Source: a virus (taxonomy: Duplodnaviria; Heunggongvirae; Uroviricota; Caudoviricetes). From it: a stretch of 33,255 nt of DNA. The stretch lies in the IMG/VR virus record IMGVR_UViG_2737471834_000009. The stretch is one strand, 5' to 3'. The position numbers were made by a program, and so were the translations under genes. How positions within the stretch are numbered: the first letter of the stretch is position 1; the number at the start of each line of letters is the position of its first letter. Of the stretch, positions 4,754 through 17,887 are shown one piece after another. Under the pieces are notes generated by a model. The model was not told the DNA's origin. It did not search any database and saw nothing but the letters and a program-made list of their open reading frames with translations.

Positions 4754-4811
4754 AAAAAGGGCGGCAGAGCAGTCACGGAGTAAAACTGATACCGCCAAAC
4801 GTCACCAGAAA
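4754..4811 (-). ncRNA. dicF: DicF small RNA (ftsZ-targeting sRNA) with intrinsic terminator
   Basis: Minus-strand sequence TTTCTGGTGACGTTTGGCGGTATCAGTTTTACTCCGTGACTGCTCTGCCGCCC followed by a T-run; GGCGG...CCGCC terminator hairpin; located between ydfC and dicB as in the Qin prophage. Confidence 0.8.
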
Positions 4812-5895: not shown

Positions 5896-5927
5896 ATGTT
5901 TATTATTAAATTTGTAATTGCGAGCTG

Positions 5928-5962
5928 TTGCATCAGTCCCAAAATGGGACTACTATACAGTT
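5928..5962 (+). promoter_or_regulatory. putative promoter with palindromic operator for the HigB/HigA-like pair
   Basis: -35 TTGCAT (5928-5933), -10 TACTAT (5951-5956), with palindrome GTCCCA-AAA-TGGGAC (5936-5950) in the spacer; predicted start site at or next to the ATG at 5963. Confidence 0.4.
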
Positions 5963-6265
5963 ATGAAGATTATCTCAGTTAAAACACTCAGGGATTTTTG
6001 GGCGGAGAATCCTGATGCAGAACAACCGCTAAGGGCATGGGTGGATGAGGCGGCAAAAGCTGACTGGAAAAGCCCAGCAGACATTAAGGCACAATACCGA
6101 ACGGCCAGTATATTGAAAAACCGGCGCGTGGTATTCAACATAAAAGGTAATCATTACCGTTTAATTGTTGCAATTGCGTATCAGCGAGGATGGGTATTTG
6201 TTAAATTCATCGGAAACCACAAGGAATACGATGCTATTGATGCTGATACCATCGAACTGGAGTAA
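5963..6265 (+). CDS. HigB-like toxin (RelE/ParE superfamily mRNA interferase)
   Basis: 100-aa product MKIISVKTLRDFWAENPDAEQ...VFNIKGNHYRLIVAIAYQ...FIGNHKEYD resembles HigB family proteins from memory; toxin gene precedes the antitoxin as in higBA. Confidence 0.75.
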   Translation: MKIISVKTLRDFWAENPDAEQPLRAWVDEAAKADWKSPADIKAQYRTASILKNRRVVFNIKGNHYRLIVAIAYQRGWVFVKFIGNHKEYDAIDADTIELE

Positions 6266-6267
6266 GC

Positions 6268-6627
6268 ATGAACATCAAACCTATTCGTACAGAGCAAGAT
6301 TATGAAGCCGCGTTGCGTGCTGTTGAACCCATGTTCGACAATGAGCCCGAAATTGACACGCCTGAGGGGGATTTTTTTGAGGTGATGTGTTTGCTAATAG
6401 AGGAATATGAAAAAAAACATTATCCCATTGAGCCACCATCCCCAATTGAAGCTATAAGATTTCGCATGGAACAGCAGGGGCTGACTGTGAAAGATTTGGA
6501 ACCCGCAATTGGGAAAAAAAATCGGGTTTATGAGGTGTTGAATGGTACCAGAAGCCTTACGTTACCAATGATTCGCCGTCTTCATAATCAATTTGGTATC
6601 CCCCTGGAAAGCCTGGTTGGATTATAA
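6268..6627 (+). CDS. HigA-like antitoxin, HTH XRE family
   Basis: 119-aa product with C-terminal helix-turn-helix (LTVKDLEPAIGKKNRVYEVLNGTRSLTLPMIRRLHNQFGIP); starts 3 nt after the toxin stop. Confidence 0.75.
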   Translation: MNIKPIRTEQDYEAALRAVEPMFDNEPEIDTPEGDFFEVMCLLIEEYEKKHYPIEPPSPIEAIRFRMEQQGLTVKDLEPAIGKKNRVYEVLNGTRSLTLPMIRRLHNQFGIPLESLVGL

Positions 6628-7192: not shown

Positions 7193-7453
7193 ATGCAAAA
7201 AAGTACTCAAGTGAAAATCCTGTCAATAATGAGCCAATCAGAATTAGGGCGTCGTCTTGGTAAAACACCGCAAACCATAAGTGGGTGGTTTAAAAAACGA
7301 GTGCCAGCGGAGGAGGTTATACCAGCATGTGAGGCGCTTGACTGGGGAGTAACTCCGCATGAATTGCGCCCTGATAAATACCCTAATCCAACCGATGGTT
7401 TACCTGTTGAGTATCAGGCTAACGCACAAGCAGCGGCGGGAGTTGATTCATGA
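7193..7453 (+). CDS. Cro/YdaS-like transcriptional regulator
   Basis: 86-aa HTH protein (SQSELGRRLGKTPQTISGWF) divergent from the repressor; RBS GGAGGG upstream. Confidence 0.7.
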   Translation: MQKSTQVKILSIMSQSELGRRLGKTPQTISGWFKKRVPAEEVIPACEALDWGVTPHELRPDKYPNPTDGLPVEYQANAQAAAGVDS

Positions 7454-7875
7454 AAATCAAGCATGAACACATCCGCATGGCGATGAATGCCTGGGCGCAT
7501 CCAGACGGCGAGAAAGTACCGGCTGCGAAAATTACCAAAGCGTATTTCGAACTGGGTATGACGTTCCCGGAACTGTACGACGACAGCCATCCGGAAGCCC
7601 TGGGCCGTAACACCCAGAAAATTTTCCGCTGGGTGGAGAAAGACACCCCTGATGCGGTTAAAAAAATTCAGGCGTTGTTACCAGCTATCGAAAAAGCAAT
7701 GCCACCTCTGCTGGTGGCCCGAATGCGCAGTCATAGCTCAGCCTATTTTCGGGAACTAGTGGAGACGCGGGAACGACTGGTGAGAGACGCTGATGATTTT
7801 GTCGCAGTGGCGATCGCTGGTTTCAACCAGATGAATCGTGGTGGCCCTGCAGGAAATATTGTGGCTGTGCATTGA
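7450..7875 (+). CDS. YdaT-like protein (CII-position regulator/toxin-like family)
   Basis: 141-aa product beginning MKIKHEHI and ending VH, as in Rac prophage YdaT; start overlaps the upstream stop. Confidence 0.7.
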   Translation: MKIKHEHIRMAMNAWAHPDGEKVPAAKITKAYFELGMTFPELYDDSHPEALGRNTQKIFRWVEKDTPDAVKKIQALLPAIEKAMPPLLVARMRSHSSAYFRELVETRERLVRDADDFVAVAIAGFNQMNRGGPAGNIVAVH

Positions 7876-13358: not shown

Positions 13359-13639
13359 GAAGGAAACAAAACAGAAACAACAATTGCCGTTACCTGTTGT
13401 TACCATGGCAAGTAAACGTATCTCAGGCGAGCGCATTGCGCCGTTCTGACGCAGATAAATTAGCCTGGATAGAAGGTGCTGGCAATAAAAAATAGCGTTT
13501 TCTTATCGGTGTCGGTAAGATTGCTGCGGGTGCTTGAGGCTGTCTGCCTCAGGCATGCCACTGTAAGGCAGACAGAGAAAAGCCCCAGTTAACATTATGC
13601 GTCCGGCAAGACGCTTAACATTAATCTGAGGCTCAATCT

Positions 13640-13852
13640 ATGAACGGCAAATCTAGGTTAGCCTCTTACGCGCCGAAAGGCAAGGAGAAGCAGGCTATGA
13701 AGCAGCAAAAGGCGATGTTAGTCGCCCTGATCGTCATCTGTATTACCGTCATTGTGACGGCACTGGTAACGAGGAAAGACCTCTGCGAGGTACGAATCCG
13801 AACCGGCCAGACGGAGGTCACTGTCTTCACAGCTTACGAACCTGAGGAGTAA
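13640..13852 (+). CDS. Mok-like reading frame (in-frame N-terminal extension of Hok)
   Basis: 70-aa ORF containing the hok frame, as in chromosomal mok/hok loci. Confidence 0.55.
   Translation: MNGKSRLASYAPKGKEKQAMKQQKAMLVALIVICITVIVTALVTRKDLCEVRIRTGQTEVTVFTAYEPEE
13697..13852 (+). CDS. hok: Hok/Gef family type I toxin
   Basis: 51-aa product MKQQKAMLVALIVICITVIVTALVTRKDLCEVRIRTGQTEVTVFTAYEPEE is near-identical to remembered HokD/RelF; mRNA leader has the tac-like hairpin GCTTGAGGCTGTCTGCCTCAGG. Confidence 0.85.
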   Translation: MKQQKAMLVALIVICITVIVTALVTRKDLCEVRIRTGQTEVTVFTAYEPEE

Positions 13853-16023: not shown

Positions 16024-16389
16024 ATGACTGAACGCATAGAATTTGTTTTGCCTTACCCGCCGACGGTGAATACCTACTGGCGACGTCATGGCAATACGTA
16101 TTTCATCTCGGAGGCCGGAAAGCGTTATCGCCGTGATGTGGCGCTAATTGTTCGCCAGCAGCGGCTGAAATTAAACCTGTCCGGAAGGCTGGCGATAAAG
16201 ATTATTGCAGAGCCACCGGATAAGCGCCGTCGTGACCTGGACAATATCCTGAAAGCACCACTGGATGCGCTGACGCATGCCGGACTTATCATAGACGACG
16301 AGCAGTTTGATGAAATCAATATTGTGCGCGGTCAGCTCGTTCCTGGTGGGCGGCTGGGGATAAAAATCACAGAACTGGAGTGCGCATGA
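16024..16389 (+). CDS. rusA: Holliday junction resolvase RusA
   Basis: 121-aa product with RusA hallmarks (LPYPPTVNTYWRRHG...DKRRRDLDNILKAPLDALTHAGLIIDDEQ); ATGA overlap with upstream stop. Confidence 0.9.
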   Translation: MTERIEFVLPYPPTVNTYWRRHGNTYFISEAGKRYRRDVALIVRQQRLKLNLSGRLAIKIIAEPPDKRRRDLDNILKAPLDALTHAGLIIDDEQFDEINIVRGQLVPGGRLGIKITELECA

Positions 16390-17075
16390 ATAACCAGTAT
16401 TTACAGTTTGTGCGTGAGCAGCTCATTATCGCCACCGCTGATTTGAGTGGGGCAACAAAAGGTCAGCTTGAAGCCTGGCAGGAGAATGCCATGTTCGATA
16501 CAGGGCGTTACAGGCGTAAAAAAATCCGGTACCGAGATGAAGTGACCGGAAAAATGATTACGCGGGATAATCCACCAATCCCGGGAAAACAATCACTGGT
16601 GAAAGGCTCATCAATTGCCCTGGTCAGCCCGGTTGAGTTTTCGACATCATCGTGGCGGCGGGCTGTTTTGTCTCTTGAAGAACATCATAAAGCCTGGTTG
16701 TTGTGGAGTTACAGCGGGAGTATTTGTTGGGAATATCAGATCGCGATAACACAGTGGGCGTGGAATGAATTTAATACTCAATCAGGTACCAGAAAAATTG
16801 CAGGGAAAACGCAGGAACGCCTGAAAAAATTAATCTGGCTGGCGGCGCAGGCAGTAAAAGCAGAACTTTTTGGTGGGGAAGGTTATGAATACCAGGAGCT
16901 GGCATTACTGGCGGGAGTGACAACTAAAAACTGGTCCAAAACATTTACTCGTCACTGGGTTGCAATGAAACACATTTTTCAACGACTGGATAGTGAGGCT
17001 TTATTGTTTGTAATGAGAACACGTTCAAAACAAAAGGCGGCATTTTCAAAGCAAAGTGTTGCAAAAGTAGATTGA
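16386..17075 (+). CDS. late gene antiterminator Q-like protein
   Basis: About 230 aa, immediately upstream of a promoter and short terminated transcript and then the lysis genes; start overlaps rusA stop. Confidence 0.7.
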   Translation: MNNQYLQFVREQLIIATADLSGATKGQLEAWQENAMFDTGRYRRKKIRYRDEVTGKMITRDNPPIPGKQSLVKGSSIALVSPVEFSTSSWRRAVLSLEEHHKAWLLWSYSGSICWEYQIAITQWAWNEFNTQSGTRKIAGKTQERLKKLIWLAAQAVKAELFGGEGYEYQELALLAGVTTKNWSKTFTRHWVAMKHIFQRLDSEALLFVMRTRSKQKAAFSKQSVAKVD

Positions 17076-17087
17076 AAGGCATATATT
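17059..17087 (+). promoter_or_regulatory. putative late promoter pR'-like
   Basis: -35 TTGCAA (17059-17064), 17-bp spacer, -10 TATATT (17082-17087), overlapping the 3' end of Q. Confidence 0.5.
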
Positions 17088-17141
17088 TCATGCAAATCTG
17101 ATATTTTGCCGATTTTGTACGTGATGGCAAAAGCAAACAAA

Positions 17142-17165
17142 ACCCGCCCACAAGCGGGTTTTTTT
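17142..17165 (+). terminator. intrinsic terminator tR'-like
   Basis: CCCGC-CCACAA-GCGGG followed by T7, about 55 nt downstream of the predicted pR' start site. Confidence 0.7.
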
Positions 17166-17247
17166 GTGCCACTTATCTCGGATAGAAATGGTGAATGCGC
17201 TGGTGGAGGAGCTAAGGGTGATTTTTAACCAGGTGATTTTTGAATGC

Positions 17248-17276
17248 TTGCAACATTGATTTCGTAACGTTATTAT
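17248..17276 (+). promoter_or_regulatory. putative sigma70 promoter for the tRNA cluster
   Basis: -35 TTGCAA, 17-bp spacer, -10 TATTAT, ending 10 nt before the first tRNA. Confidence 0.5.
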
Positions 17277-17285
17277 CCTGCGCCC

Positions 17286-17361
17286 GGCCCTTTAGCTCAG
17301 TGGTGAGAGCGAGCGACTCATAATCGCCAGGTCGCTGGTTCAAATCCAGCAAGGGCCACCA
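17286..17361 (+). tRNA. tRNA, anticodon CAU (ileX/ileZ-like tRNA-Ile2; tRNA-Met not excluded)
   Basis: Manual cloverleaf: acceptor GGCCCTT/AAGGGCC, anticodon loop CTCATAA, T-loop TTCAAAT, CCA encoded; close to remembered ileX. Confidence 0.8.
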
Positions 17362-17362
17362 A

Positions 17363-17439
17363 CCGCCACTAGCTCATCAGGAAAGAGCGTCAACCCTTTA
17401 AGTTGAGTGTGCGAGGTTCGAGTCCCCGGTGGCGGTCCA
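17363..17439 (+). tRNA. atypical tRNA, anticodon loop CCTTTAA (anticodon UUU, Lys-like, with C at position 33)
   Basis: Manual cloverleaf: acceptor CCGCCAC/GTGGCGG (C1-G72), D-loop with GG, T-loop TTCGAGT, CCA encoded; isotype uncertain. Confidence 0.55.
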
Positions 17440-17441
17440 GT

Positions 17442-17517
<76 letters not shown>

Positions 17518-17520
17518 TAT

Positions 17521-17595
<75 letters not shown>

Positions 17596-17601
17596 GTTAG
17601 A

Positions 17602-17647
17602 GTCTTTCAGTCTGCGATGATGGGAAATCCCGGAGTGACTGAAAGAC
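17602..17647. repeat. perfect 11-bp inverted repeat (GTCTTTCAGTC / GACTGAAAGAC) with 24-nt loop
   Basis: Directly after the last tRNA. Confidence 0.7.
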
Positions 17648-17654
17648 GTTTAAG

Positions 17655-17727
17655 TTATGAATGATCGCCTTTTTTTGCAAAATTGCTGTGCAGAAATACT
17701 AACCTTCGGGCAGGCGATCATTCATAA
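17655..17727. repeat. perfect 15-bp inverted repeat (TTATGAATGATCGCC / GGCGATCATTCATAA) with 43-nt spacer
   Basis: Read directly from sequence; no ORF of appreciable size inside. Confidence 0.7.
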
Positions 17728-17801
17728 GCACTCTGCTTTTATTCCGATTAACTGTGGGTGGTTTGTTGGATAGAGTGCTTTCCTTTCTGTATATATCGTT
17801 T

Positions 17802-17826
17802 CGCCCGCTTTTGCGGGTTTTTCTTT
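17802..17826 (+). terminator. intrinsic terminator-like hairpin upstream of the lysis cassette
   Basis: CGCCCGC-TTTT-GCGGG followed by a T-run. Confidence 0.55.
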
Positions 17827-17887
17827 TCAAATCCCTTTCATTTCTCAGTGTAAAACTACGCCATCCGTTATTTGCGGAGGTGAGGCT

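Follow-up and report, generated by a model that had tools for sequence, protein, structure and literature searches.

In phage lambda, RNA polymerase leaving the late promoter pR' pauses at +16/+17 on a -10-like element that spans +1 to +6, and the short RNA of the pR'/tR' unit, 6S RNA, is 194 nucleotides (nt) long, as against about 72 nt for the RNA predicted in the prophage described here. The Q-binding element of phage 82 lies within -31 to +30. The late promoter of that phage carries a -10-like pause element with an extended -10 motif, followed by a GCC discriminator at +15 to +17, an AT-rich stretch and a pause at +25/+26, with U at +25 (PMC5001585). IsrJ, a Salmonella small RNA (sRNA) of about 74 nt, is abundant under all conditions tested in lysogens (PMC7067206; PMC4825925); it was detected by northern blot in Gifsy-1 and is the basis of an Rfam model. 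Lastly, differential RNA sequencing (dRNA-seq) of strain Sakai placed a primary transcription start that drives the tRNAs between tR' and stx2AB (PMC7547250). Here we describe the late-control region of a 33,255-nt stretch of DNA (IMG/VR record IMGVR_UViG_2737471834_000009; the whole stretch is called the window and positions are counted from its first letter), which, judged by gene content, is a lambda-like E. coli prophage. Two nested transcription units appear to head its late operon, namely a pR' unit of the phage 82 type and a self-contained tRNA cassette. We put the probability of this reading at roughly 80%.

The elements of the first unit are as follows.

16386-17075, plus strand: open reading frame (ORF) of 229 amino acids (aa), the Q antiterminator gene, phage 82 family, with a TGA stop codon at 17073-17075
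17059-17064, plus strand: -35 hexamer TTGCAA of the late promoter P1 (pR'), in the final codons of Q, 8 nt ahead of the stop
17082-17087, plus strand: -10 hexamer TATATT of P1, 3' of the Q stop codon, with a 17-nt spacer from the -35
17094 (A), plus strand: predicted transcript start of P1, placed by the -10 spacing and the register of the published 82 pR' positions
17099-17110, plus strand: predicted sigma-70-dependent pause element, with TG at +6/+7, TATTTT at +9 to +14 and GCC at +15 to +17
17104-17132, plus strand: possible leader hairpin, UUUUGCC with GGCAAAA, from the predicted fold
17139-17165, plus strand: intrinsic terminator tR', AAAACCCGC-CCACAA-GCGGGUUUU with a U-run, from the hairpin scan and fold
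17094-17165, plus strand: predicted short terminated RNA, about 70-72 nt long and equivalent to 6S RNA of lambda

The Q protein of the window matches Pfam family PF06323 (E = 9e-90) and is 77.7% identical to Q of phage 82 (X92588) and 74% identical to Q of phage 434. A sequence search of PDB with this protein returned no relative and no match to any solved Q structure. For comparison, 32 loci with Q relatives of 58-93% identity were gathered from Kluyvera, Citrobacter, Leclercia, Klebsiella, Raoultella, Atlantibacter, Franconibacter and other genera, and phage 434 was added; one locus (L115) was left out of the family set because its Q reading frame is interrupted. Promoters and leaders were compared over 29 distinct sequences and terminators over 33 loci.

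The two hexamers of P1 are separated by 17 nt in 29/29 family sequences. The -35 is TTGCAA in 25 of the 29 and begins with TTGC in all of them, whilst the A at position 2 and the T at position 6 of the -10 are kept in 28. Moreover, the TT of the -35 is retained across GTT, ATT and CTT codons, that is, through the third codon position and alongside different amino acids. Its constancy despite the change of codon suggests that the DNA itself is under selection and not the protein alone. The P1 unit was found in 1105/5426 complete E. coli genomes, and an O157:H7 genome has it with 100% identity.

Downstream of the promoter, the sequence signature of the window matches every described position of 82 pR' if +1 is 17094, including an AT-rich ATTTT 3' of the pause element and then T at +25. 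This register fits only with +1 at 17094, and the start is therefore placed where the original prediction had put it. A pause would be expected at 17118/17119 (+25/+26). G+7, T+9, A+10 and T+14 are invariant in 29/29 family leaders and T+25 is present in 27, with +12 and +13 varying freely. The pause signature of the family can be written as TGnTAYnnT, which is the pattern to be expected if region 2/3 of sigma-70 reads an extended -10 element.

The GC stem of tR' (CCCGC at 17143-17147 with GCGGG at 17154-17158) is extended by A-U pairs from 17139 and is followed by T7 at 17159-17165. Our terminator scan counts the T-run after the maximal stem and so listed tR' on the minus strand only, despite which the hairpin and U7 are plain on the plus strand. 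Across the family, a strict scan for hairpin and T-run found a terminator in 27/33 loci, at 52-88 nt from +1 apart from one at 119 nt, and most of the six loci that failed it are visibly weakened versions. The terminator sequences are unrelated to one another, which shows that structure is conserved and sequence is not. Taken together, these comparisons support P1 and its terminator as the probable late-promoter unit of a phage-82-family Q protein. The claims of the original prediction for this part of the window hold up well: its TTGCAA-17-TATATT promoter does overlap the end of Q, with the -35 in the last codons and the -10 past the stop; the strong terminator it placed within about 55 nt has a stem beginning about 55 nt past the P1 -10; and the proposed likeness to the lambda 6S RNA unit on which Q acts is supported by a PF06323 Q together with a promoter, pause element and terminator that recur behind Q.

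The 73-nt RNA folds into the leader hairpin and the terminator at -22 kcal/mol (z = -3.1). Other leaders of the family have comparable hairpins whose arms differ in sequence. As the leader types differ in register, no single-alignment count of covariation was possible and shuffles were made per sequence instead. In these the leader hairpin scored weakly, the mean z of 17 variants being -1.6 and that of the window -1.2. Two other candidates within the leader were rejected. An ORF at 17106-17228 (40 aa, TTG start) spans the terminator, and a promoter-like TTGCCA-16-CAAAAT on the minus strand (17130-17103) is the reverse complement of the 3' arm of the leader hairpin and lacks conservation in other leader types. 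The tR' hairpin has A- and T-runs on its flanks and might stop transcription in both directions; there is no convergent gene near it.

Copies of the same pR' unit were also seen in E. coli ECMA0423 and Shigella flexneri SFBU1023 (L084 and L085, at about 2185-2290). In both, 1 nt has been lost 3' of the -10, the pause element reads TGATAC through a T-to-C change, and the terminator stem has a G-to-T change; the two copies look like decaying late-control regions of cryptic prophages.

The short RNA of the window can be linked to IsrJ. The Rfam isrJ model (RF01393) aligns end to end with 17091-17163 at a relaxed threshold, scoring 24.5 bits against a gathering score of 37, so that by Rfam's rule the window RNA is no member. 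At the gathering score the model finds 10 family loci, with isrJ starting 16 nt 3' of the Q stop codon. Among the loci with isrJ are L091, L092, L095, L097, L098, L101, L102, L103 and L111 (at about 2206-2285), the genera include Citrobacter, Leclercia, Raoultella and Atlantibacter, and isrJ of Gifsy-1 lies at 2700-2821 of L117. The first 15 nt of IsrJ, uguAAAUCUGAUAUC, correspond to the start region and pause element and align to UGCAAAUCUGAUAUU of the window. The two RNAs are alike in length class and in the style of their terminators, whereas the middle of the RNA is unrelated. In Gifsy-1 the antirepressor module isrK-orf45-anrP separates Q from isrJ, in contrast to the window, where P1 lies at the end of Q. 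However, TTGCAAAACTGGATTAA-N-TATATT stands in front of isrJ in Gifsy-1 and is left over from the Q82 3' end and its promoter. This relic, together with the position of isrJ directly behind Q82-type genes, indicates that IsrJ is the pR'-tR' leader RNA of the Q82 family; it looks like the 6S RNA equivalent of phage-82-type Q proteins, and the window RNA would be a diverged relative of it. The abundance of IsrJ in lysogens then lends indirect experimental support to the activity of such promoters in uninduced cells. That IsrJ is a late-promoter leader RNA of a Q family is not stated in the accessible IsrJ literature.

The second unit lies between tR' and the lysis genes, and its elements are as follows.

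17217-17246, plus strand: 15-bp tandem duplication, GGTGATTTTTAACCA / GGTGATTTTTGAATG, directly 5' of the P2 -35
17248-17253, plus strand: -35 hexamer TTGCAA of a second promoter, P2, with a 17-nt spacer to the -10
17271-17276, plus strand: -10 hexamer TATTAT of P2, next to a GC-rich discriminator CCTGCGCCC, with a start expected at about 17282-17284
17286-17595, plus strand: four tRNA genes (CAU, UUU, UGU, UCC) from ARAGORN and Rfam, all encoding CCA
17597-17779, plus strand: highly structured spacer that folds into three long hairpins, perfect or nearly so (-83.6 kcal/mol, z = -6.0)
17803-17827, plus strand: cassette terminator GCCCGC-TTTT-GCGGGT with a T-run, from the scan, 60 nt before the start of holin S

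The GC-rich discriminator of P2 resembles those of stable-RNA promoters. To compare P2 across phages, 186 occurrences of the first tRNA in viral contigs were collected, and the 70 nt upstream of them comprise 53 distinct sequences. With the tRNA as anchor, positions -35 to -33 (TTG) and -13 to -7 (T-TATTAT) hold 1.8-2.0 bits and information upstream of the -35 falls to 0.3-0.9 bits, with the caveat that the contexts share ancestry and these figures therefore overstate their independence. T-TATTAT is essentially invariant and the 17-nt spacing is fixed in all 53, and the -35 varies only among TTGCAA, TTGCAG, TTGCGG, TTGAAG, TTGATT and similar sequences. The upstream contexts fall into about 8-10 unrelated kinds (at least eight), in one of which a terminator abuts the -35. 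Both hexamers are identical in Stx2a_F349. Moreover, the Sakai interval that holds the mapped tRNA start (Sy et al.) contains no other plus-strand promoter candidate. These data support P2 as a putative sigma-70 promoter of a portable tRNA cassette, conserved independently of its flanks. Literature searches on ileZ/argN/argO promoters gave nothing usable.

For this promoter the original prediction holds with minor corrections. The hexamers of TTGCAA-17-TATTAT and their position stand, as does their proximity to the tRNA cluster, given as 10 nt, with an actual gap of 9 nt from the -10 to the first tRNA. Calling the site near-consensus was generous, as it matches 9/12 positions, which is not above shuffled sequence. 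We infer for the window, as the best reading, the dual expression that had been proposed, by late read-through and from the tRNAs' own promoter; P2 is conserved across unrelated contexts. The highest-scoring site of the promoter scan in this region, TCGGCA-16-TATAAT (17509-17536, 10/12), was rejected since it lies inside the tRNA-Thr and tRNA-Gly genes and its TATAAT is the D-arm of tRNA-Gly. The 15-bp duplication lies where one would look for an UP element or a regulator site, and it is present in one or two copies among close relatives, a copy-number polymorphism.

Identity to the ileZ-argN region of Shiga-toxin (Stx) phages is about 90% from 17221 of the window onwards, and the segment 17221-17300, which holds the promoter region and the 5' end of the first tRNA, occurs at 2674 places in 1266/5426 complete E. 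coli genomes. The first tRNA (CAU) is annotated as tRNA-Ile by RefSeq and is ileZ-like. The second (17363-17439) has the scaffold of the Stx-phage tRNA-Arg(UCG) gene argN with a rebuilt anticodon arm. Its anticodon stem has changed from CAGC/GCTG to CAAC/GTTG, which is compensatory, and its loop from CUUCGAA to CCUUUAA, giving the anticodon UUU and a C at position 33, where U is near-universal. This tRNA has the lowest Rfam tRNA score of the four (44 bits) and is unannotated in one close phage record. The spacer that follows the tRNAs, about 190 nt, is absent from Stx-type cassettes and has no Rfam match; it may serve in processing, encode an sRNA or be a small mobile insert.

The terminator at 17803-17827 was absent from the original prediction. 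A homologous terminator (GGCTCGCTTTTGCGGGCC with T6-8) lies 31 nt past argO, the last tRNA, in Stx-phage modules. In most modules the tRNAs are followed by a terminator; for roughly a third of the arrays the strict scan gave none. A constitutive P2 600 nt upstream of the holin gene would call for such a stop, as without it P2 would drive the lysis genes. Promoter, tRNAs and terminator would together make up a self-contained insert (a 'moron') 3' of tR'.

From these elements, their conservation and their homologies we infer start sites, pausing, Q loading, promoter activity and terminator efficiency, and the region would work as follows. RNA polymerase with sigma-70 would start at about A17094, sigma would be recaptured by TGaTATTTT (+6 to +14) and the polymerase would pause at about +25/+26. 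Without Q, it would run on to tR' (17139-17165), terminate and release an RNA of about 72 nt. Q, if present, would bind DNA beside the paused complex at a putative element and travel with the polymerase, which, so modified, would pass tR', then the tRNAs, then the second terminator, and so reach the lysis and head/tail genes. Independently of Q, P2 would start at about 17283 and give the four tRNAs and the structured spacer, ending at 17803-17827. With its own promoter and terminator, the cassette would thus allow Q-free synthesis of tRNAs in the lysogen, with unmodified polymerase halted before the holin. Only Q-modified polymerase from pR' would pass both terminators, and holin S would be the first late gene to require Q-dependent read-through.

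Besides the shared ancestry of the P2 contexts, several points weigh against this interpretation. Firstly, the hexamers by themselves are not distinctive. In the promoter scan, which compared hexamer matches over 7 kb with shuffled sequence, P1 and P2 each match 9/12 positions, and sites of this quality are not enriched (10 in 7 kb against 7.6 ± 2.8 in shuffles). The hexamer score alone is thus insufficient, and it is comparative conservation that lifts the two promoters above chance. Secondly, the -35 of P1 overlaps invariant Ala-Lys codons, so its conservation is possibly in part protein-driven. Thirdly, the window was matched to 82 pR' by positions given in a text and not by the 82 leader sequence itself; record X92588 of phage 82 does not extend past the stop codon of Q, and full-text literature searches for the leader returned nothing relevant. 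Fourthly, the promoter of Sakai Sp5 is TTGCAG / 17 nt / TATTAT, with a spacer differing from that of P2, and the Sakai tRNA start, placed to an interval, would correspond to this P2 homologue. Lastly, in some Q82-family prophages of other genera (such as L103) the tRNAs begin 10 nt past tR', which leaves no room for a promoter. Such tRNAs can thus do without a promoter of their own, and this layout would make a separate promoter a property of the E. coli cassette and not of phage tRNAs generally.

Of the alternatives, the one that survives best is that the pR'-tR' RNA acts in trans as an sRNA of the lysogen, like StxS or IsrJ, with its main selected function in uninduced cells. StxS binds Hfq and regulates host and toxin genes (PMC7547250), and IsrJ, which is made from a Q82-type promoter in Gifsy-1, reportedly affects invasion in addition to being abundant in all conditions (PMC7067206). 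The number of E. coli genomes carrying the unit and the recurrence of the leader hairpin with differing arms fit such a role. However, the sequence between pause element and terminator is poorly conserved and in some members absent altogether, the terminator beginning from about +28, which suits a spacer better than a conserved seed region. The weak scores of the leader hairpin and a window RNA below the isrJ gathering score argue in the same direction. We consider a regulatory role as the main selected function possible though rather doubtful; an sRNA function adds to the late-promoter explanation and does not replace it.

A second alternative concerns P2, which on this account is no working promoter. 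TATTAT...GCGCCC would instead be a leader or processing context of the tRNAs, which would be made solely by Q-dependent read-through in lytic growth. The match of P2 to consensus at only 9/12 positions is compatible with this, as are the layout of L103 and that of L092, where the tRNAs lie directly behind a terminator-like hairpin with no visible promoter. However, a constraint on the leader leaves unexplained why TTG stands exactly 17 nt 5' of TATTAT over about 8-10 unrelated contexts, the homologous module of Sakai has a dRNA-seq primary start driving its tRNAs (PMC7547250), and a cassette terminator is needed only if Q-free polymerases enter the cassette. We therefore regard this account as quite improbable.

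Anticodon nucleases of the PrrC or PARIS type target tRNA-Lys, and a variant tRNA-Lys(UUU) could resist them. With P2 freeing it from Q, the cassette may conceivably serve chiefly in the lysogen and not in lytic growth, as a steady supply of the unusual tRNA-Lys(UUU) to the host with an anti-defence or immunity-modifying effect, a proposal to which we give very little weight. The weakest alternative takes TTGCAA at 17059-17064 for half of a CII box (TTGC-N6-TTGC) serving an antisense, minus-strand promoter of the paQ type, and although the phage 434 record has a CII site and the paQ -35 annotated at the homologous position and the minus strand of the window at 17064-17051 reads TTGCAACACTTTGC, a perfect TTGC-N6-TTGC overlapping the pR' -35, it is hardly credible here and was rejected for the window, which encodes YdaT and has no lambda-type CII that we could find, shows no convincing minus-strand -10 after the box, and belongs to a family whose second TTGC/TTGT half-site is patchy (present in about half of the sequences, by eye) whilst the plus-strand -10, start and pause element are found in all. 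Where a phage does encode CII, one site could play both roles, in pR' and as a CII box.

The remaining features of the prophage are listed below.

4759-4810, minus strand: DicF antisense RNA, reaching the Rfam gathering score
6674-7072, minus strand: repressor gene of the immunity region
7193-7453: YdaS-like gene of the immunity region
7450-7875: YdaT-like gene of the immunity region
13528-13702, plus strand: sok antitoxin RNA (hok/sok type), upstream of Q, reaching the Rfam gathering score
17888-18103, plus strand: holin S of the phage 21 type (Pfam PF04971, E = 1e-35)

The immunity region is of the RacR/YdaS/YdaT type, with the YdaT-type gene occupying the position of cII. A HigB-like toxin gene (PF09907) and a helix-turn-helix antitoxin-like gene, together at 5918-6627, adjoin it. 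Q is preceded by a DUF968/YdfU gene and RusA and followed by the phage-21-type holin, lysozyme and Rz. One sequenced phage is 98% identical across the region and has the same gene order.

There is little new biology in these results, as the late-gene switch is textbook material and the promoter of the tRNA cassette has already been start-site mapped in Stx phages. What they offer is a well-supported annotation of the start sites, pause element and two terminators of a late-control region whose two parts are each carried by roughly a fifth to a quarter of complete E. coli genomes, O157:H7 included. In addition, the comparative set presents the 82-type pause element as a clean TGnTAYnnT signature over many genera.

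Set beside the known systems, the proposed unit has the same logic as pR'/6S RNA/tR' of lambda, although lambda Q belongs to a different Pfam family and is unrelated in sequence to Q of the window. Phage 82, a model system of the Roberts and Hochschild laboratories, is nearer, as its record has TTGCAA at the same distance from the Q stop as in the window; however, the two Q alleles differ in 22% of residues and the Q-binding element may differ too. The Q end of phage 434 is closer and 82-like, with GTA in place of GCC and a terminator 20 nt nearer than that of the window.

In Stx phages, StxS is likewise a short RNA from an always-active late promoter, ended at tR'. As in the layout of the window, a tRNA cassette comes directly after it, which in Stx phages is of the ileZ type and has a mapped start. 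The Q type differs, being Q933 or Q21-like, and the StxS primary transcript of 258 nt, processed by RNase E to 74 nt, has no sequence similarity to the leader of the window. A strong terminator-like hairpin, GAACCCGCCGATGCGCGGGTTT with a T-run, was seen in Sakai Sp5 (L003, 869-897), about 25-50 nt past the pR' start of the Stx2a phage, yet the published StxS ends at the next terminator, at 258 nt. Sakai coordinates shift by about 142 nt between NC_002695.1, used in the published work, and the.2 version used here. As to the tRNAs, the ileZ-argN-argO cassette, found in Stx phages and in other lambdoid prophages of E. coli, reads CAU-UCG-UCU and that of the window CAU-UUU-UGU-UCC, the first tRNA being the same. 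The former precedes the toxin genes in Stx phages, whereas the latter precedes the holin gene.

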